Positions 8,116 through 43,064 of a stretch of 51,169 nt of DNA are shown here, piece by piece. A program made the position numbers and the translations under genes. The notes beneath the pieces are model-generated. The model was not told the origin of the DNA. It searched no databases and was given only the letters and a program-made list of their open reading frames with translations. The stretch is from Octopus sinensis (lineage: Eukaryota): NCBI RefSeq assembly GCF_006345805.1, contig NW_021834337.1:1-51169 (forward strand), read 5' to 3'. The first letter of the stretch is position 1. Each line of letters starts with the position of its first letter.

Positions 8116-8478
8116 GCAATGGCCCAGTGGTTAGGGCAGCGGACTCGCGGTCGGAGGATCGCGGTTTCGATTCCCAGACCGGGCGTTGTGTGTGTTTATT
8201 GAGCGAAAGCACCTAAAGCTCCAAGAGGCTACGGCTGGGGGTGGTGGCGACCCCTGTTGTACTCTTTCGCTCCAACTTTCTCCCACTCTTTCTTCCTCTT
8301 TCTTGTCCCCGACTTCCTACGCAACCGCTGATCCTGGATACGCATTCATCCATCCGTCGATGCTCTCGGTGTCGGGGGTTGACTTGCTTTCCCTTCTGCG
8401 GGTCTTACGAATAGCAAAGGACTACGGTTCGGACTCCTCCCACTACGTACGAAGACCGCTTCGTTCAACTAAACAAAA
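8116..8478 (+). mobile_element. tRNA-derived SINE, family A
   Basis: A-box TGGCCCAGTGGTTAG and B-box-like GGTTTCGATTCC; long collinear match to 30257-30622; follows a (CAA)n tract. Confidence 0.92.
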
Positions 8479-12207: not shown

Positions 12208-12489
12208 TATATATACACATATATATGTATGTTTATATATTATGTTTACACACACACACATACACGCACAAACATACACATATGTGTATATATGTATGTA
12301 TGTTTGTATTTGCCACTCTCATGCGGTGCATCTTCTCTTCTAGAAGGTTGGTGATGTTCTTATGCAGCTCCATACAGATATTACGTTAAGTACACGTGCC
12401 ACGCTGTTTGTTTGAGTTTCGAACTATCGATCGGCTACTTTCACTGTACACGAACGTATTATCATCCTCATTATTAATTAGTCTTATGG

Positions 12490-13060
12490 ATTGACGGAAG
12501 ATTTAGCGCGTCGAACAAAATGCATTACTGTAATTCTTGTGACACATTACGTTCTGACTTCAAATTAGGTAATTACCTTTGTCTTTCATACCTCCGGAGG
12601 GATAATTTAGAGTACCAGTTGAATCTTGGAATCAATGCCATTGATTGAATATCCGTCTTCCGAAATTTCTGGCTTTGTGGCTATAATTGAACAGTTAGGG
12701 TAAGAATTTGACGGAATCGTTAGAGCGTCTGGCCAAATGTCTTGTAGGAATTGTTATAGTATCTATTACCAATTATGCACTGAGATCAATTTAATCGACT
12801 AAATTTCTGCTCCTAAAATTTTCAGGTCTTGAGCCAATATTCTTTCTACCTATCTCTCACTAATTTTCGCGGAAGGCAAGCTCTTTTAATGGGATGTTAT
12901 ATCGACGCCAGTGTTCAGCTACTACTTATTTTATCGACCCCAAAAGGACATAAATTAAAATCAACCATCGCAGTTTCTGAATCCAGAAGATAAAGATTCG
13001 GTAGAAATGACGCCAAACACGTTTTCCGGCACGGTAGCAATTCTATCCGCTCGACACTTA
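12490..13060. mobile_element. Cluster of old degenerate family-B SINE copies (both strands)
   Basis: TTACGTTCTGACTTCAAAT, GAGTACCAGTT and TACTTATTTTATCGACCCCAAAAGGA motifs. Confidence 0.65.
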
Positions 13061-13239: not shown

Positions 13240-13597
13240 TATCTATCTATCCGCTCAGTCGAAGTCGACTCTCGGTTACTCGTTGGATCAGTGTCCTCCC
13301 GTCAGTTCTGTCCTGGGCCGCTTCTTTCAGATTAGCTATATTCATTCCGGTATCAGTCTTGATGGTGTCAAGCCAGCGGGTTCTTGGTCGGCCTCTTCCT
13401 CTCTTGCCACTGACCATTCCGAGCATGATGTCCTTCTCCAGGGATTTTCTCCGCATAATATGACCGAAATATGCCAATCTATGCTTGGTGATCCTAGCTT
13501 CTAGTGACATTTTCAGCCTGATCTGCTTAAGAACTTCTCCATTGGTGAGCCTCGCTGTCCATGGAATCCGTAAAAGTCTTCTCCAACACCAAAGCAA
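13240..13597 (-). mobile_element. 5'-truncated RTE/BovB-like LINE 3' end with (ATAG)n tail and 10-bp TSD
   Basis: Open frame LWCWRRLLRIPWTAR...YFGHIMRRKSLEKDIMLG...GKRGRGRPRTRWLD...RLRLSG*, the typical BovB/RTE ORF C-terminus. TSD CTTACAATGC at 13230-13239 and 13598-13607. Confidence 0.95.
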
Positions 13598-14941
13598 CTT
13601 ACAATGCAGCAAGTTTAAAAAAAACAAAAAAACTTTATATTTCGTGCGCAAACGCCTATTTTAGGGAAGATACAGTCAAAGAACCCTACATCTACATAGA
13701 CTCTGCCATTTTGGACAGCCGGAAGGGCAGTGACATCGTTTTAGTCAAATGCTTGTGCTAGCAGCAGCTTGTCTCTAAGAGATGGGGTTATTTGGTGTCA
13801 TGAAGCATTTGGCTGTACGTTAGCAACTGTGTTGGTGAAGGCAGATGTCGATGGTGGTAAATGCCATATTTGGTGCTGGTAGTGAAAGCCATGGTTGTTG
13901 TCAGTGGTCGTTTCCTATTTCATTTATCATTCAACTTCTGCTTCAAGAGAACCACAAAACTCTTCTTTCAATAAGAATCATATTAGCTGATTTCTACCAA
14001 GAAACTAAACAACACATAATCTCACCCATCTTTCCCCACAGTATTTCTAGCCTTGTGTTTCTGTATAAAAATCATTATTAACAATTAACTTGGCATGCAA
14101 TTTAAAATAGAGCTAAAATTACGGACAATGGAATTCGCGAGAGGATTTCTGTTGAATTCCCTATTATAAGACTTTTCATTTTGCTTATACATACGTCTTG
14201 ATTTTGAAGTCTTGTTCTAATGCAAGTAATTAACATCACGTGATAATTAATAGATGCCAATAAATTTGGACATTTACATTCAATCTTGACGGTTTTTCAA
14301 AAGGAACTGATCTTCTTAAATTTATCAGCCCATACAACAAGATTACCCTAAAATATGTCTTTTAAATTTATTTGATACAAAAGTTTTAAAACTAAAAAAA
14401 AATTAATTTATATATATATATAATATATGAAGAAATATACTGAGAGCAAAGAGAATTCAACATAAAATACTCTTAGATGAATCATATTATATTTAAATAG
14501 TATATTCTTTGTGTTCAAAGGCAATAGCCTGAAACAGCTTATTCCGTGAACACTTCGATGATTGGATTATAGGCTTTCTTATGTTGAATGTAGCTGTAAT
14601 GTTGTCTTTTGGTTCAACAGCTCATGTGTCTTTTACAAATAATATAATTGATTAATTGATTATAGATGACTTATTATTACCGATTTGTGTCCCTTTTCGG
14701 CCACAGATTGTTGCTCAAAATCATTGTCTCTAAGCTTTATTATACAACACGCCGCCCCTCCCTGCACAGAAATTCTTGTGTAGTTGGGTAGAGAGAGAGT
14801 TTAAATAGAATACATCCATAATGAAATGTCAATGTTTATCACTTATTACGTGGATATCCAAGCACATACATGCCAATGCAATGTATATATATACATATAT
14901 ATGCATATATGTGTATATGTATATATCTATATCTATATCTA

Positions 14942-21204: not shown

Positions 21205-22079
21205 ATATATATATAAGGAGAGAGAGAGAGAGAGAGGAGAAAGGGAGGTAGAGACAGGATGATAAGTTGTAAGTTGTAGCACAGAATAGATACGCACCAG
21301 GTAAATTCTTGGACAGACCAAAATTTTCAACTGCAACTTCTTAATCACGATGAGGTATGTCACAAAGAGTTGAGTTTTTTGAAGAAAACTTATTAAAGAG
21401 GGAAGAAGGAGAAACAGTTGTAGAGTAAGGAATACATTTATTTAAGTTGTTACATATATTTGGATGATGAAACACAACTTTACAACTGTTTCAAATATTC
21501 TGTAAATGGCTGATATTATAATGCATATGATGTAATCGGGCGTACGTTAAGCGATAACATAACTAGAAAGCATATTATGAGCACGTGGGAAACCATATTA
21601 ACCACACAAGAATCGCCATACTTGGATATCTTCATGCAAGAAATAGAGAACATTCCTGTATGTTTAATATGAATTATAACATTAACTTTTTACTGAATAT
21701 TTAAATCGACTATTATCCAGGTATTAGATGTAACATTTCATGTTAGTACATTCAGTTATTAAATGTAACATATATTAATACATTCTTTACACCTGTATAT
21801 TTATATATATATGCATACATTCATATATACATACATATTTGTTTGAATATTTTTATATAAATATTTCGGCTGTATGTCGAATATGTCTTGGTAATAGATA
21901 AGGTATTTTCTTTGACCCTCCCCACCCTCTCTCACTCTCTCTCTCCCTCTGTTTCCTCCCTTCTCTACAATGGGATTGTGGACCAAAGATCGCTGTACAG
22001 ATTGCAAATTTTGAAGAATGTTGTTGGCAAACCTGATATATTGGATCTTTCTTTAGATTTTCTCTCTTTCATTTTTCTT

Positions 22080-23000
22080 TCATCCAATTCGACTTTGTAA
22101 TTTTTACTCCTACTATAACTTTCCACCATCGTTAGCGGTGTTTCACTGTCTTAATCTGCAGAGTTGCAATTAAGCTATTTAGTTTACTGAGATATCATTT
22201 GATGATATGCTTAAACTACGTCTCAGGCGTCCTTTTCGCCGTCTTCCATATTTCGTTTTGTATGGCATTGCTTCAGGTAACCTAACCTTGTTCATTCATA
22301 TTACATTTCTCCCTCATCAAAACTGAATTCTTTCTATCAGCAAATACTCAACAGTAGATATCAGCGCGCTGCTGGGTCTCCTGGTAAGAGATATAGTCTA
22401 GTAAAGAAGTGTTCATTATAGCTGCAGATGGTACAATTGGCAGGTCACCAGTTTTTGATATGTCGACGATACGGTCCCAGCTGAATATAGCGAATTGGAT
22501 AGAACAAAGGATCGATATACTTCCTCCGTTTTTTCTACTATCGATAACTGATGCTCCCGCAAACAATTATTGTTGTTTATATACGACAATTCTCATCTGC
22601 GTCCAACCTGTTGCTATCTGAAGGCGTACTGCTCAAATTTGTAAAATTCATCACCAGGCTTACATCATAATGGTCAGATATTCTAGTTTCGATTGATACA
22701 AAACTTCGGTCTTCGCTATATTCATCGATGGGCGGGAAGCTGTCGACGCTCATTCTAAATGATACGCTATTTTGTGTATGTCTTCTAGGGAAAGAATCAC
22801 TGGTAGTGAGTCATGAGCTAAGAGAAGTTCGCGAAGACATATCACGGCATATCTTAATAGGTGTTAGTGCAGACACGTTCTACAACTCACCATCCAATTC
22901 TTTAAGTGCTAATGCATTCCACTCGTATGCTTACTCACCATGTTTTCACACATCGCCAAGATTTTAGAGAGATAGTGTTGGAACGAGCGTTCCGAAAGTA
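22080..23000 (-). pseudogene. Decayed RTE-clade LINE reverse transcriptase, copy 1
   Basis: Frameshifted minus-strand peptides GTLVPTL, LRELLLAHDS (RELLFADD), MNIAKTEVLYQ, NFTNLSST..RLDADENCRI, RLPEAMPYKTKYGRRRKGR and HR*RWWKVI occur in RTE order. Confidence 0.85.
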
Positions 23001-23474
23001 GACCGAACAGTCGCCCCGAAAGCATCATGGCAGACATACCACACCGGAACTGCTTATTTTCACAAATATGTCCGGACACACGCATTATTTAACGAGTGGC
23101 CATAGTCTCTCACTCACTTCCCAAAATATACGCTATGTGCAATGAAATATTGCTCTTTCTATTTCCATTTTCAATTCGATAATATATACAATATATTATA
23201 TATATATGCATACATTCATATATACATACATATTTGTTTGAATATTTTTATATAAATATTTCGGCTGTATGTCGAATATGTCTTGGTAATAGATAAGGTA
23301 TTTTCTTTGACCCTCCCCACCCTCTCTCACTCTCTCTCTCCCTCTGTTTCCTCCCTTCTCTACAATGGGATTGTGGACCAAAGATCGCTGTACAGATTGC
23401 AAATTTTGAAGAATGTTGTTGGCAAACCTGATATATTGGATCTTTCTTTAGATTTTCTCTCTTTCATTTTTCTT

Positions 23475-24395
23475 TCATCCAATTCGACTTTGTAATTTTT
23501 ACTCCTACTATAACTTTCCACCATCGTTAGCGGTGTTTCACTGTCTTAATCTGCAGAGTTGCAATTAAGCTATTTAGTTTACTGAGATATCATTTGATGA
23601 TATGCTTAAACTACGTCTCAGGCGTCCTTTTCGCCGTCTTCCATATTTCGTTTTGTATGGCATTGCTTCAGGTAACCTAACCTTGTTCATTCATATTACA
23701 TTTCTCCCTCATCAAAACTGAATTCTTTCTATCAGCAAATACTCAACAGTAGATATCAGCGCGCTGCTGGGTCTCCTGGTAAGAGATATAGTCTAGTAAA
23801 GAAGTGTTCATTATAGCTGCAGATGGTACAATTGGCAGGTCACCAGTTTTTGATATGTCGACGATACGGTCCCAGCTGAATATAGCGAATTGGATAGAAC
23901 AAAGGATCGATATACTTCCTCCGTTTTTTCTACTATCGATAACTGATGCTCCCGCAAACAATTATTGTTGTTTATATACGACAATTCTCATCTGCGTCCA
24001 ACCTGTTGCTATCTGAAGGCGTACTGCTCAAATTTGTAAAATTCATCACCAGGCTTACATCATAATGGTCAGATATTCTAGTTTCGATTGATACAAAACT
24101 TCGGTCTTCGCTATATTCATCGATGGGCGGGAAGCTGTCGACGCTCATTCTAAATGATACGCTATTTTGTGTATGTCTTCTAGGGAAAGAATCACTGGTA
24201 GTGAGTCATGAGCTAAGAGAAGTTCGCGAAGACATATCACGGCATATCTTAATAGGTGTTAGTGCAGACACGTTCTACAACTCACCATCCAATTCTTTAA
24301 GTGCTAATGCATTCCACTCGTATGCTTACTCACCATGTTTTCACACATCGCCAAGATTTTAGAGAGATAGTGTTGGAACGAGCGTTCCGAAAGTA
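23475..24395 (-). pseudogene. Decayed RTE-clade LINE reverse transcriptase, copy 2 (duplicate)
   Basis: Same sequence as 22080-23000 at +1395. Confidence 0.85.
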
Positions 24396-24585
24396 GACCG
24401 AACAGTCGCCCCGAAAGCATCATGGCAGACATACCACACCGGAACTGCTTATTTTCACAAATATGTCCGGACACACGCATTATTTAACGAGTGGCCATAG
24501 TCTCTCACTCACTTCCCAAAATATACGCTATGTGCAATGAAATATTGCTCTTTCTATTTCCATTTTCAATTCGATAATATATACA

Positions 24586-24618
<33 letters not shown>

Positions 24619-30256: not shown

Positions 30257-30622
30257 GGAGGCGCAATGGCCCAGTGGTTTGGGCAGCGGACTCGCGGTCA
30301 GAGGATCGCGGTTTCGATTCCCAGACCGGGCGTTGTGTGTGTTTATTGAGCGAAAACACCTAAAGCTCCACGATGTTCCGGCAGGGGGTGGTGGCGACCC
30401 CTGTTGTACTCTTTTGCTCCAACTTTCTCTCACCCTTTCTTCCTGTTTATTGTCTCCGACTTCCTACGCAACCGCTGAGCCTGGATGCGCATTCATCCAT
30501 CCGTCGATGCTCTCAGTGTGGAGGATTGATCTGCTTTCTCTTCTGCGGGTCTTACGAATAGCAAAGGACCACGTTTCGGACTTATTCCATCTTGCGAGCT
30601 CTGGGATTAAGACCGTTCGCTC
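30257..30622 (+). mobile_element. Full-length tRNA-derived SINE, family A, with probable TSD
   Basis: GGAGGCGCAATGGCCCAGTGG...GGTTTCGATTCC; AACAGCAGCAACAACAGCA at 30236-30254 and 30623-30641 (low complexity). Confidence 0.92.
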
Positions 30623-30702
30623 AACAGCAGCAACAACAGCAACAACAACAACCATAGTATAATCCAGTTCAACTGCAATTTCCAGAAAAATATAGTTTCT
30701 TG

Positions 30703-30970
30703 TGAAGCCACGTGACTTAGTGGTTAAAGCATTCGGTTCACGATCACAAGAACGTGATTTCGAGGTCAAGACATTTTATTTCACGATGTTCCACTCCACT
30801 CAGTTAACAGAAAATGTGTTGTTTCTGTAATTCAAAAAGACAGACTACGTTAAGAGGTGCGCATGTCTGTGGAGTACTCACCCACTTGCACCCACTCGGT
30901 AGTTTCACGAGCAAGTTGTTCGGTTGATCAGATCAACAGGAACACTCATCGTGGTCACAGGCGGAGTACC
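30703..30970 (+). mobile_element. Degenerate tRNA-headed SINE family D
   Basis: Head GTGACTTAGTGGTTAAAGCATTCGGTTCACGATC; 3' part related to 20235-20410. Confidence 0.65.
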
Positions 30971-31173
30971 ATTTGTTTATAGATTCACTACATTGAACAT
31001 TAAGCGCTGGGTGTTATTGTGTGTTGTATGCGCATGCGTTCATGCGTGAGTGTGTGTGTTTATGTGTGTGCATGTATGTGTGTGTGTTTGTGTCTGTGTG
31101 TCTGTGTGTCTGTGTATCTGTGCGCGCGTATGTAGTCCCATGCGTACAAAGGTGTAGAAACATTTCTTTGTAA

Positions 31174-31767
31174 GGCGGTGAGCTGGCAGAAATGTTAGCA
31201 CGCCGGGCGAAATGCTTAGCTGTATTTCGTCTGCCGTTACGTTCTGAGTTCAAATTCTGCCGTGGTCGACTTTGCCTTTCATCTTTTCGGAGTCGATAAA
31301 TTAAGTACCAGTTACGCACTGGGGTAGATGTAATCGACTTAATCCGTTAGTCTGTCCTTGTTTGTCCCCTCTGTGTTTAGCCCCTTGTGAGTAGTAAAGA
31401 AATAGGTATTTCGTCTGCCGCTACGTTCTGAGTTCAAATTCCACCGAGGTCGACTTTGCCTTTCATCTTTTCGGAGTCGATAAATTAAGTACCAGTTACG
31501 CACTGGGGTCGATGTAATCGACTTAATTTGTTAGTCTGTCCTTGTTTGTCCCCTCTGTGTTTAGCCCCTTGTGAGTAGTAAAGAAATAGGTATTTCGTCT
31601 GCCGCTACGTTCTGAGTTCAAATTCCACCGAGGTCGACTTTGCCTTTCATCTTTTCGGAGTCGATAAATTAAGTACCAGTTACGCACTGGGGTCGATATA
31701 ATCGACTTAATCCGTTCGTCTGTCCTTGTTTGTCCCCTCTGTGTGTCTTGTGGGCAGTGAAGAAACA
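31174..31767 (+). mobile_element. Family-B SINE trimer: one head plus three 184-bp body/tail units, 18-bp TSD
   Basis: Units start GTATTTCGTCTGCCG at 31222, 31406 and 31590. TSD AGAAACATTTCTTTGTAA at 31156-31173 and 31768-31785. Core GTCGACTTTGCCTTTCATC..TCGG.GTCGATAAATTAAGTACCAG resembles the Meta-SINE domain (from memory). Confidence 0.95.
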
Positions 31768-32481
31768 AGAAACATTTCTTTGTAATCACGGATAAAGTTA
31801 CATAAAAGATATACGAAGCTATTCTTTCTTTTCTCTCATTGTTGTTTAGCCCCAGGTCAACTTTGATCTAACGGACCAAAGTTATTCCGTCCGTAACAAT
31901 CATTTCAAAGATATCCAGGACTACATTATAGAATACTCCCTCCCCCCCCCGTCTTTAAAGACAGTTGCCGCAAATCACGGGCAATGTTGCAGCTATTTCT
32001 AGCAAGTCAAACAACCACATACAATTTTCCCCTATTGGCTCGTCTTCGATGTTTTTGTTTTTGATCTCGTTCTTCTTGCTCTTGTTGTACTCGTTTCGTT
32101 TCAATTCTCTCTATTTCCCTCACCCACCTTTTTCTTCCTTTCATTGATTTTCTTCTTTTGTTAGAAGCAATAAGGCGCAGCATTCCAAGGATCCTTCTCA
32201 CCATTGTCGTCCTGTTTGTTTATTCATTTTTTGAGGTGAGGTAAACAAATATACAACCAAATCTGTCAGTTCAAACAAAATAAATGTGGGAAAGAAGAAT
32301 CTATAAATATGAAGAGAAAAAAAGAAAGAAACCGAAAAAGCAAACTCAAATTTCTTTTACCTAACCTGAGGTGATCTCTGTTTAAAGTGCGTGGAGGCCA
32401 GCGGAGTATATTGTGAAAGTGCTGGCCGAGCATTTTACACTCGGAACAGATAGGGAATTTTCTTTATAATAACAGTTATAA

Positions 32482-32877
32482 TACTCTCTACTAAAGGCCT
32501 AAAGACCGCAATTTTGGTTGAGGGGACTGGTAAATTACATCCACCCCAGTATTTCACTGGTACTTATTTTATCGATCCCGAAAGGATGAAAGGGAAAATC
32601 GACCTCGGTGGACTTTAAACTCAGAACGTAAAAACGGACGAAATACCTATTTCTTTACTACCCACAAGGGGCTAAACACAGAGTGGACAAACAAGGACAG
32701 ACAAACGGATTAAGTCGATTACATCGATCCCAGTATTCATCTGGTACTTAATTTATCGATCCCGAAAGGATGAAAGGTAAAGTCGACCTCGGCGGACTTT
32801 AAACTCAGAACGTAAAAACGGACGAAATACCCTTAAACATTTCGTCCGCGTACTAAACATTCTGCCAGCTCACCGCC
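32482..32877 (-). mobile_element. Family-B SINE dimer (head, body, young tail, body, old tail)
   Basis: Two core copies joined by GACGAAATACC|TATTTCTTTACTACCCACAAG (plus strand, ~32637-32670). Confidence 0.9.
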
Positions 32878-34289: not shown

Positions 34290-34790
34290 ATGGCACCTTG
34301 GACAAGTGTATTCTACTATAGCTTTGGGCCGAACAAAGCTTTGTGAGTGAATATGGTTGATGGTATCTGAAAGAAGCCCGTCCTAGATATATACATATAT
34401 ATGGTTGTGTGTCTGTGTTTGTTTCCCCACCATCGCTTGACAACGGATATCGGTGTGGTTACGTCACCGTAACTTAGCGGTAAGAAAAAGAAACCTATAG
34501 AATAAGATAGTATAAGGCGGCGAGCTGGCAGGAACGTTAGCACGTCGGGCGAAATGCTTAGCGGTATTTTGTCTGCCGTTACGTTCTGAGTTCAAATTCC
34601 GCGCAGGTCGACTTTGCCTTTCATCCTTTTGGGGTCGATTAAATAATTACCAGTTACTCACTGGGGCTGATGTAATCGACTTAGTCCGTTTTTCTGTTCT
34701 TGTTTGTCCCCTCTATGTTTAGCCCCTTATGAGCAATAAAGAAATAAGAATAAGTATTAGACTTACAAAGAATAAATAATCGGGTTGATT
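34290..34790 (+). mobile_element. Family-C SINE interrupted by a family-B SINE
   Basis: GGCACCTTGGACAAGTG...GAAAGAAGCCCGTC...CGTAACTTAGCGG; resumes AGAATAAGTATTAGACTTACAAAGA after the insert. Confidence 0.8.
34516..34747 (+). mobile_element. Full-length young family-B SINE monomer, nested in family C
   Basis: GGCGGCGAGCTGGCAG...GTTCAAATTCC...TTAGCCCCTTATGAGCAATAAAGAAATA. Confidence 0.93.
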
Positions 34791-36275: not shown

Positions 36276-36794
36276 ATAGGTATATACACGCACGGGACGC
36301 ATGTATTCGGATAGATATACAGATATATTTGGAACTTAGCTAGCGGAGACCGCTAGATAGACGATAGATCGAAAGATCGATCGGTAGAGAGATAGATTAA
36401 TTGATAGATAGAGATTTTGTTATCTAGCAGACTAGGTAAATAGGAAGATTATTAATATCTAGCGCGCGATGGCTCCTAACACACACACACAGGCGCCTGT
36501 TTCTCTGCTTTTTTGCTCTGAAGCGACATCAGTTTCTAAGGCCTTTATACATTATTTAAATCCGCCTAACATGCATATGCGGTCGTTTTGATTATATTTG
36601 ATTATATATTCTCTCTGAATTCTTTGTTTTTCAATAAAGGAGGAAAATTACAAAATCCTTATTTCGGAGTGTGGGTGGGGTGGGGGTGGAAGCGTAAGTT
36701 TATTATTTTTTGCCCCTTTCTATCGTGTCTTGACATACAAAATAGGGGGTATGTAAAAATTTCCTTGTGTTAATAAATAAAATAATCCTCACAA

Positions 36795-37497
36795 GGCTTG
36801 AAATTATAACGACCCTGGTACTTAATTTATTGAACCCCGAATGATGAAAGGCAAAGTCGATCTCAGCGGAATTTGAACTCGGATCGTAAAGACATGAAAT
36901 ATTTAAGCCTTTTTGTCCGGCGTTCTAACGTTTCTGCCAATTCACCCGCCTTGATATTTGGTTTCAAATTTTGGCACAAGGCCAGCAATTTCGGGGAAGG
37001 AGCTAAGTCTATAAACTCATTGGTACATATTTTATCGACCCTAAAAGAATGAAAGGCAAGATCAACTTCGGGAAATTTGAACCCAGAACTTAATGACGGA
37101 CGAAATGTCGTTAAGCATTTCCTATTGTATGCACAAGGCCTGAAATTTTGGGGATGGGGGATAGTCGATTACATCGGCCCCAGTACCCAACTTATGTTAT
37201 CGACCCCGAAAGGATCGAAGAGGTAAAATCGACCTCGGTGTAATTTGAGATCAGAACGTAATGACAGATGAAATACCTATTTCTTTACTACCCACAGAGA
37301 GGACAAACACGGACAGACAAACGGATTCAGTCGATTACATCGACCCCAGTGCGTAACTGGTACTTAATTTATCGACCCCGGAAGGATGAAAGGCAAAGTC
37401 GACCTCGGCGGAATTTGAACTCAGAACGTAGCGGCAGACGAAATGCCACTAAGCATTTTGACCGGCATGTTATAACAATCCTGTCAGCTTGCCGCCT
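36795..37497 (-). mobile_element. Array of family-B SINE units, including a young head-less unit inside an old copy
   Basis: Four core copies; junction GAAATACC|TATTTCTTTACTACCCACA at ~37270-37296. Confidence 0.88.
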
Positions 37498-42800: not shown

Positions 42801-42834
42801 TTATCTATCTAACCATCCATCTATCTATCTACCT

Positions 42835-43064
42835 ATTTCTTTATTACCCACAAGGGGCTAAACACAGAGGGGACGAATAAGGACACACAAACGGATTAAG
42901 TCGATTACATCGACCCCAGTGCGTAGCTGGAACTTAATTTCTCGACCCCGAAAGGATGAAAGGCAAAGTCGACCTCGGCGGAATTTGAACTCAGAGCGTA
43001 ACGACAGACGAAATACAGCTACGCATTTCGCCCGGCGTGCTAACGTTTCTGCCATATCGCCGCC
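42835..43064 (-). mobile_element. Full-length young family-B SINE monomer with 16-bp TSD
   Basis: Reverse complement of the 34516-type element; ATCTATCTATCTACCT at 42819-42834 and 43065-43080. Confidence 0.93.

Follow-up and report, generated by a model that had tools for sequence, protein, structure and literature searches.

Octopuses carry tRNA-derived SINE families known as OK, OR1 and OR2 (Ohshima and Okada 1994), which are, like the MetaSINE and CORE superfamilies, candidate affiliations for the element described here, to be judged by the match of its central domain to a published consensus. Among described multimeric arrangements of SINEs, the sSat repeats of squamates (Vassetzky et al. 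2023, PMC10702118) resemble the array reported here in that unit boundaries are constant at many loci, units are similar within a locus and a longer terminal unit reaches the end of the SINE. In the accessible text of that paper, the repeats studied have at least four middle monomers and lie preferentially in subtelomeres; their origin is attributed either to unequal recombination or to insertions that were repeated, and TSD, template and rolling go unmentioned in its searchable text (PMC10702118). Many copies of the B2, Dip and Ves SINEs also occur in multimers, for which the available part of the report leaves open the choice between tail insertion and dimeric templates (PMC8466645). Both papers, as far as their available text goes, leave open the origin of SINE dimers and SINE-derived tandem repeats (PMC8466645, PMC10702118). 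Non-LTR retrozymes (PMC7229834; bioRxiv 10.64898/2026.07.22.740005), as presented in the accessible portions of these sources, share with the present array tandem units (150-450 bp), the formation of dimers and trimers, and longer target duplications. Concatemers made by L1 ORF2p (PMC10830420) and U6/L1 products joined via RtcB (PMC6789731) resemble it, in the passages available, by a full-length copy lying upstream of a 5'-shortened one within one insertion.

We analysed a stretch of 51,169 nucleotides (hereafter, the window), in which a first-pass annotation had described a SINE trimer. The sequence style of both the window and the element is presumably octopod. A constant junction in a very abundant family amounts to many natural replicates, and the origin of dimers would be directly testable in a good assembly of this animal group.

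Structure of the trimer and of its family

Positions in the element are counted from window 31174 (position 1), and type A and type B are labels coined here for the two 3' tails found behind one common core. The array (31156-31785) was characterized by a single head followed by three units, all bracketed by one pair of identical 18-bp direct repeats, as the first-pass annotation had proposed. The two internal junctions, at 31404/31405 and 31588/31589, also agreed with that description, both reading AAAGAAATA directly followed by GGTATTTCG, as did the presence in all three units of CATCTTTTCGGAG, whose three occurrences in the window all lie inside the trimer. The length of 184 bp given for every unit applied to the first two but not to the third, which is 179 bp long, carries a 5-bp deletion and has a tail end unlike that of units 1 and 2. 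As a tandem array, the trimer showed a period of 184, with 2.8 copies and 96% matches. Unit 3 is likely the original resident copy. The differences between the units argue against an assembly duplication. None of the contig pieces listed spanned the trimer locus.

Table 1. Coordinates of the trimer, the other arrays and two monomers of the family in the window (TSD, target-site duplication)
Feature	Position	Strand	Remark
Left TSD copy, 18 bp	31156-31173	+	Identical to 31768-31785
Single tRNA-like head, 47 bp	31174-31220	+	ARAGORN: no tRNA
5' arm of the long head stem-loop	31204-31215	+	Inside the head
Unit 1, 184 bp	31221-31404	+	Stem 3' arm, box B-like motif (presumed), common core, type-A tail
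Junction 1	31396-31412	+	Tail continues at element position 48 (final base in the loop of the head stem)
Unit 2, 184 bp	31405-31588	+	Mosaic
Junction 2	31580-31596	+	Same sequence as junction 1
Unit 3, 179 bp	31589-31767	+	5-bp deletion, other tail ending
Right TSD copy	31768-31785	+	Identical to 31156-31173
Dimer D2	32480-32877	-	One head, junction at 32640-32656, last unit with type-B tail
Monomer m34	34516-34750	+	Non-junction tail ending
Array c37	36950-37496	-	Head (diverged), then a type-A unit (young), the junction (37270-37286), a type-B unit (older), another junction, which enters position 36, and a third unit (oldest)
Monomer m43	42825-43064	-	Inside a TAGA microsatellite

Motifs that we take to be box A-like (in the head, near 31184-31198) and box B-like (in unit 1) were visible by eye alone; ARAGORN predicted 0 tRNA genes and Rfam returned no tRNA match. 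The head forms a stem-loop with a 12-bp stem, for which the copy in m34 gave -14.4 kcal/mol (z -3.2). A BLAST search with the head and unit 1 as the query returned 15 matches in the window, including the self-match, and the family proved very abundant in sequencing run X1, where 343,184 contigs aligned to a reference of the head, unit 1 and 8 junction bases. Target-site duplications measured 18 bp at the trimer and 16-18 bp at m43, and were decayed at m34; in the flanks examined at D2, c37 and a further copy, m36, no clear duplication was present.

Several other features of family copies were observed. Six of the seven headed copies examined were preceded by AA, mostly as TAA (31174, 32877, 34516, 36950, 37496 and 5550), which reflects either an element start two bases earlier or a target preference. 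Stacked copies also occurred: a full-headed copy lies directly behind c37 (36760-37496, minus strand), and at 12480-12990 two old copies stand in tandem, facing an inverted one. Outside the window, 31 bp of the family core recurred exactly in a metagenome contig (L001:701-731) whose flanks are unrelated, which suggests, from the sequence, a central domain in common with a SINE of another animal. Searches with tail, junction and core motifs gave nothing in viral contigs or prokaryote genomes; in metagenomes they gave this one contig, which contains the core motif and seemingly belongs to another family.

The window also contains other repeats. An open frame at 13250-13660 (minus strand), followed by a short ATAG repeat, resembles what we take to be the C-terminus of an RTE/BovB-type LINE protein; a Pfam search on five frames gave no hit passing the cut-off (best E 0.07). 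This LINE-like fragment was considered as a partner of the SINE and not accepted, with no obvious common tail seen by eye. A 1.4-kb tandem duplication (21797-23207 and 23191-24603), 99.86% identical, either arose very recently or reflects duplication in the assembly. A further family of dispersed repeats, represented by two copies that are 92% identical over 320 bp (8116-8435 and 30263-30582), is probably another SINE.

The junction and its recurrence

The 17-mer of the junction occurred four times in the window, where shuffling gave an expectation of 0.02 (0 out of 100 shuffles reached four). These occurrences correspond to three independent loci in 51 kb, namely the trimer, where it is found twice, D2 and c37. 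In the alignment, the junction amounts to the head stem without its 6-nt loop CTTAGC. The first-pass annotation had drawn it as a hairpin, GAAATA-GG-TATTTC, and had described the tail as complementary to the re-entry site. As drawn, the hairpin requires a 2-nt loop and was not recovered: the fold obtained had 5 bp, a 4-nt loop and -1.4 kcal/mol, and was marginal (z -1.4; 17 out of 200 shuffles were equally stable). The complementarity was borne out, and it arises because the tail word GAAAT repeats head positions 36-40, which belong to the 5' arm of the 12-bp stem-loop and are the natural partner of the re-entry site. The idea that the target duplication is specially linked to a hairpin was dropped (z 0.21).

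Other junctions, too, lie at matches between a tail word and the head: one leads from the tail to position 15, and another, at c37, leads from a type-B tail to position 36. T219 was present in all four junction-type tails and in neither of two other loci (p 0.07), which hints weakly at inheritance of the junction. The target duplication of m43 starts with AGGTA, the first letters of the junction, which would fit an RNA that had the junction at its end; a degenerate TAGA repeat could account for it too, so that this observation is ambiguous.

Four (X1, X10, X13 and X22) of 24 listed sequencing runs were aligned to a reference made of the head, unit 1 and 8 junction bases, and the presence of these bases favoured detection of the 184-bp class. 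All tallies of joints in the runs rest on the 15 joints listed of 470. X10 is RNA by guess only; the junction exists in DNA, and a contig with the joint fits a circle and a genomic dimer alike. The 184-bp joint was present in all four runs, in X22 with one read only. Among the listed contigs with a joint leaving the tail, this class accounted for 110 out of 121 in X1, 13 out of 13 in X10 and 3 out of 10 in X13. In X22, a raw-read run that probably contains little of the source organism, 8 of 12.9 million reads aligned, one of the eight with the 184-bp joint. A second class, from the tail to position 15 (window 31188, period 217), was found in at least six contigs of X1 and at least seven of X13, and a third, leading back 141, in at least five contigs of X1. 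Among the listed joints, the position-15 class outnumbered the 184-bp class in X13 (7 versus 3 contigs), and the reverse was observed in X1 (6 versus 110). A 190-bp class, with a jump at GAAAT and the loop kept, was absent from the 15 of 470 joints listed. In X1, 1126 contigs had loose tail sequence ahead of 31222, as did 133 in X10; this class was not among the six listed for X13. Depth past the junction, relative to tail depth, was 0.15-0.36 in X1, 0.17-0.32 in X10 and 0.04-0.20 in X13, these being rough ratios and not copy numbers. Junction positions scattered over loci, which the first-pass annotation had associated with ordinary unequal crossing-over, were not what the listed joints displayed; a fixed site recurs among them.

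Two head variants, G43 and C48 (window 31216 and 31221), each accounted for 22-28% of depth in X1 and X10 and for less than 1% in X13. If linked on one molecule, they would jointly add a base pair, reduce the head loop to 4 nt and alter the re-entry base. Monomer m43 carries G43. Under the homing reading given below, the head variant that alters the re-entry base, common in X1 and X10 and below 1% in X13, could represent an escape form.

Unit histories and origin of the arrays

Unit 2 of the trimer is a mosaic of its neighbours. Its first 109 bases are identical to those of unit 3, with five differences from unit 1, and from unit position 107 onward two adjacent bases differ from unit 1. The unit-1-specific sites (64, 85, 86, 90 and 153) all precede the unit-3-specific events (157, 176, 204, the deletion, 217, 219 and 223). 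This order of five sites before seven events had a p of 0.001-0.003 in one direction, and of 0.07 when body sites alone were considered; site 48, at the junction edge, and site 230, which adjoins the target duplication, were omitted. Among derived states, unit 2 has A86 in common with unit 3, and A176 and A217 in common with unit 1; of 13 events in total, 1 falls on unit 2 (p 0.04 if a star tree is assumed). The three units do not differ at positions 91-152. With its 5' part as in unit 3 and its 3' part as in unit 1, unit 2 is as expected if, in an older dimer, 184 bp across the junction had been duplicated. We consider it quite probable that the trimer is an ordinary expansion of a dimer, in which unequal crossing-over or slippage between the dimer units would have added the middle unit, in a second step, by exchange between unit positions of about 106 and 129.

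Site 64 is polymorphic, with T in unit 1 and C in unit 3, which indicates that the resident was not copied throughout. The T111/A118 motif common to the trimer units may be a subfamily mark. The majority letters at these two sites represented 77-81% of depth in the DNA runs and 94% in X10, versus 89-96% at two other sites at which unit 1 differs; as they hold only 77-81% of the DNA-run depth, T111 and A118 are perhaps not private. Compensatory pairing of the same two bases within a small hairpin was considered and rejected, since the folds obtained leave both unpaired.

The two other arrays contained parts of seemingly different ages. Core differences from the window majority, which was built from 5-8 window copies of mixed subfamilies, numbered 1, 8 and 11 of 62 at c37, from the head outward (first versus second unit, p 0.03; first versus third, p 0.004); another count gave 2 versus 8 of 63 for the first and second units (p 0.10). 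The c37 head had 7 private changes in 44 positions versus 5 in 154 in the adjoining unit (p 0.006), subfamily sites having been removed by the author's judgement. At D2, the head and core exhibited 11 differences out of 106 and the type-A tail 1 out of 65 (p 0.03); a young type-A tail thus lies within an older frame, and the type-B tail that closes the last unit is degraded. At both loci, the last unit looks older, from its sequence, than the tail ahead of it, a polarity taken from two of the three arrays read in context and from contrasts picked after the data had been seen.

Both D2 units share T78, G82 and A119, of which T78 and G82 were found in none of ten other aligned units and A119 in one; in total, nine non-majority states between 59 and 144 are common to the two units. 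Local gene conversion could also explain these common changes. At c37 the sequence changes to type A near 50-59, and at D2 it does so after 144, the 3' junction being constant. Runs of T5 were observed at a matching place in both D2 units, and runs of T4 in the trimer units. By the vertebrate rule, such T4-T5 runs would likely stop Pol III, which disfavours a single transcript as the source of these arrays.

For the dimers, we lean towards an explanation in which a junction-bearing SINE RNA primes reverse transcription in resident copies of its family and is resolved on the resident DNA, with the head and scar kept. A transcript of any existing dimer would pass from the type-A tail into GGTATTTCG, which matches position 48 onward of the residents, and such transcripts are predicted to extend beyond the tail into GGUAUUUC. 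The RNA end GGUAUUUCG would pair at a nick in a resident copy, priming the LINE reverse transcriptase; the cDNA, covering the tail and part of the body, would then anneal to the homologous core of the resident and be completed on resident DNA. The product would retain the resident head and the old target duplication, with the new tail adjoining the head. The resident stretch between the priming and switch points would be duplicated together with its private changes, this stretch being long at D2, little or none at c37 and covering at least 111-118 in the parent dimer of the trimer. The junction would be constant because it is inherited from the donor RNA, with a variable 5' switch point. The junction itself is likely to have arisen on one or a few occasions, when a jump at the shared word GAAAT left out the 6-nt loop; a circle, jump or ligation at the stem-loop may have been its first origin. 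The junctions at positions 15 and 36, where tail words match the head, are as short-homology priming predicts. A jump from RNA to target DNA belongs to standard models, as given in the accessible parts of two sources (PMC2881922, PMC10830420), and on this reading the steps would pass through RNA. The self-targeted insertion with local homogenisation proposed by the first-pass annotation fits in a modified form, as RNA priming plus exchange, the junction recurring beyond the locus.

More tentatively, and with a confidence that falls somewhat short of probable, the SINE subfamily could be regarded as a homing parasite of its own family, that is, as a case of RNA-guided retrohoming by a non-coding element. 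The RNA of the invader, ending in internal family sequence, would be steered to one site in the residents; the invader would take over the resident head promoter and scar, place its own tail first, and obtain more invader from each invaded copy. The scale would be a sizeable share of the family, judging from X1 and X10, in which past-junction depth relative to that of the tail was 0.15-0.36; this ratio is rough and does not give copy numbers. If resident copies are indeed invaded in this way, inserted SINE copies are not inert and are rewritten by younger relatives; module swapping between SINE tails would be explained, dating by divergence would be confounded, and the assumption that one target duplication means one insertion event would be broken.

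Transcription of dimeric or trimeric master genes and their retrotransposition as whole elements, as for Alu, with later homogenisation of the units by local gene conversion, would directly explain both the constant junction and the single target duplication. True dimeric SINEs exist, according to the available text of two reports (PMC10702118, PMC3531059); m43 lacks a T4 run, so that read-through is possible, and the identity of positions 91-152 among the trimer units also agrees with this account. Copying of a whole element should, however, yield parts of one age, yet the units of c37 differ (1, 8 and 11 of 62, with a diverged head), D2 exhibits a young tail in an older frame, and the three arrays end in different tail types; we regard this account as rather unlikely. 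A similarly low probability is given to spread of the junction at the DNA level, by ectopic recombination or break repair templated on a dimer elsewhere and without an RNA step. Such repair would yield one head, the target duplication of the resident, a constant junction, switch points that vary and an old frame containing a young tail; c37 agrees with it, and the abundance of the family in X1 is in its favour. A simple exchange, in contrast, duplicates no resident sequence, and the changes at 59-144 common to both D2 units would require an extra conversion. Monomer m43 also suggests, if ambiguously, that a junction-type RNA was inserted by target priming.

Quite improbable, in our estimation, is the formation of all units in one insertion, by a reverse transcriptase that rounds a 184-nt circle or jumps back to the RNA 3' end. 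One target duplication and the presence of CATCTTTTCGGAG in all units would follow from it, and the two ends of the linear 184-nt unit pair in its fold, although both the linear (z -0.37) and circular (z -0.05) folds were no better than shuffles. In the accessible text of the corresponding papers, L1 ORF2p makes template-jump concatemers in vitro (PMC10830420) and RtcB can join RNAs before retrotransposition, as for U6/L1 (PMC6789731). No exact hammerhead core was found on either strand, and an Rfam search of 30500-32500 gave two chance-level matches and no ribozyme family at E<=1. Units derived from one circle should be equally old and bear one tail, whereas those of the trimer are unequally related, unit 2 being a mosaic with its 1 of 13 events, and D2 and c37 end in older-looking units with a type-B tail. 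A circle, moreover, has no head and supplies neither the head nor a type-B last unit. Reverse transcription around a circular or folded RNA, as put forward in the first-pass annotation, is therefore unsupported. Very improbable is ordinary head-to-tail stacking, in which the reverse transcriptase stalls at the strong stem-loop and the resulting 5'-truncated copy is inserted into the tail of an older copy. B2 and Dip SINEs commonly form such multimers, according to the available part of one report (PMC8466645), and here the head stem-loop is stable and re-entry occurs at its loop; the downstream unit should, however, be the younger, and the reverse was seen at c37 and D2. In the trimer, too, unit 3 carries the deletion and more tail changes. 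Stacking would also leave unexplained the private changes common to both units and the invariant tail end.

Comparison with known systems

L1 or Alu cDNA recombines with resident copies as an occasional by-product, and R1/R2-type elements are primed by 3' homology and target rDNA. The RNA-primed invasion of residents that we favour for the dimers would resemble these cases, in that cDNA is resolved on a resident element and the RNA 3' end matches its target; it would differ from them in that a SINE subfamily targets its own family at one site. The literature searched gave no description of such a junction or of a self-homing SINE, and Repbase, Dfam or subscription papers may record one. The parts of an Alu-like dimer are all of one age, whereas age contrasts were observed at c37 and D2, which are two loci only.

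Non-LTR retrozymes are defined, in the accessible portions of their descriptions (PMC7229834; bioRxiv 10.64898/2026.07.22.740005), by a type I hammerhead and a circular RNA; here, no exact hammerhead core was found, the head is tRNA-like and the units are not uniform. The products of L1 ORF2p and the U6/L1 chimeras, as given in the available text (PMC10830420, PMC6789731), come from one event and have parts of one age, the L1 part of U6/L1 being variably truncated, whereas in the present arrays the junction is constant and ages differ. In B2, Dip and Ves multimers, the units are full-length according to the accessible text (PMC10702118); here, the later units have no head and begin at one start base, and the head-adjacent unit appears to be the youngest. 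As in sSat repeats, the tandem unit is shorter than the SINE (184 of about 231 bp), and its boundary was constant at three loci and in contigs; the trimer contains one middle unit, and not four or more middle monomers. The arrays described here further differ from sSat repeats in having 2-3 units, in lying, as three arrays, within about 6 kb, in their mixed tail types, and in an age that appears to be ordered from the head.
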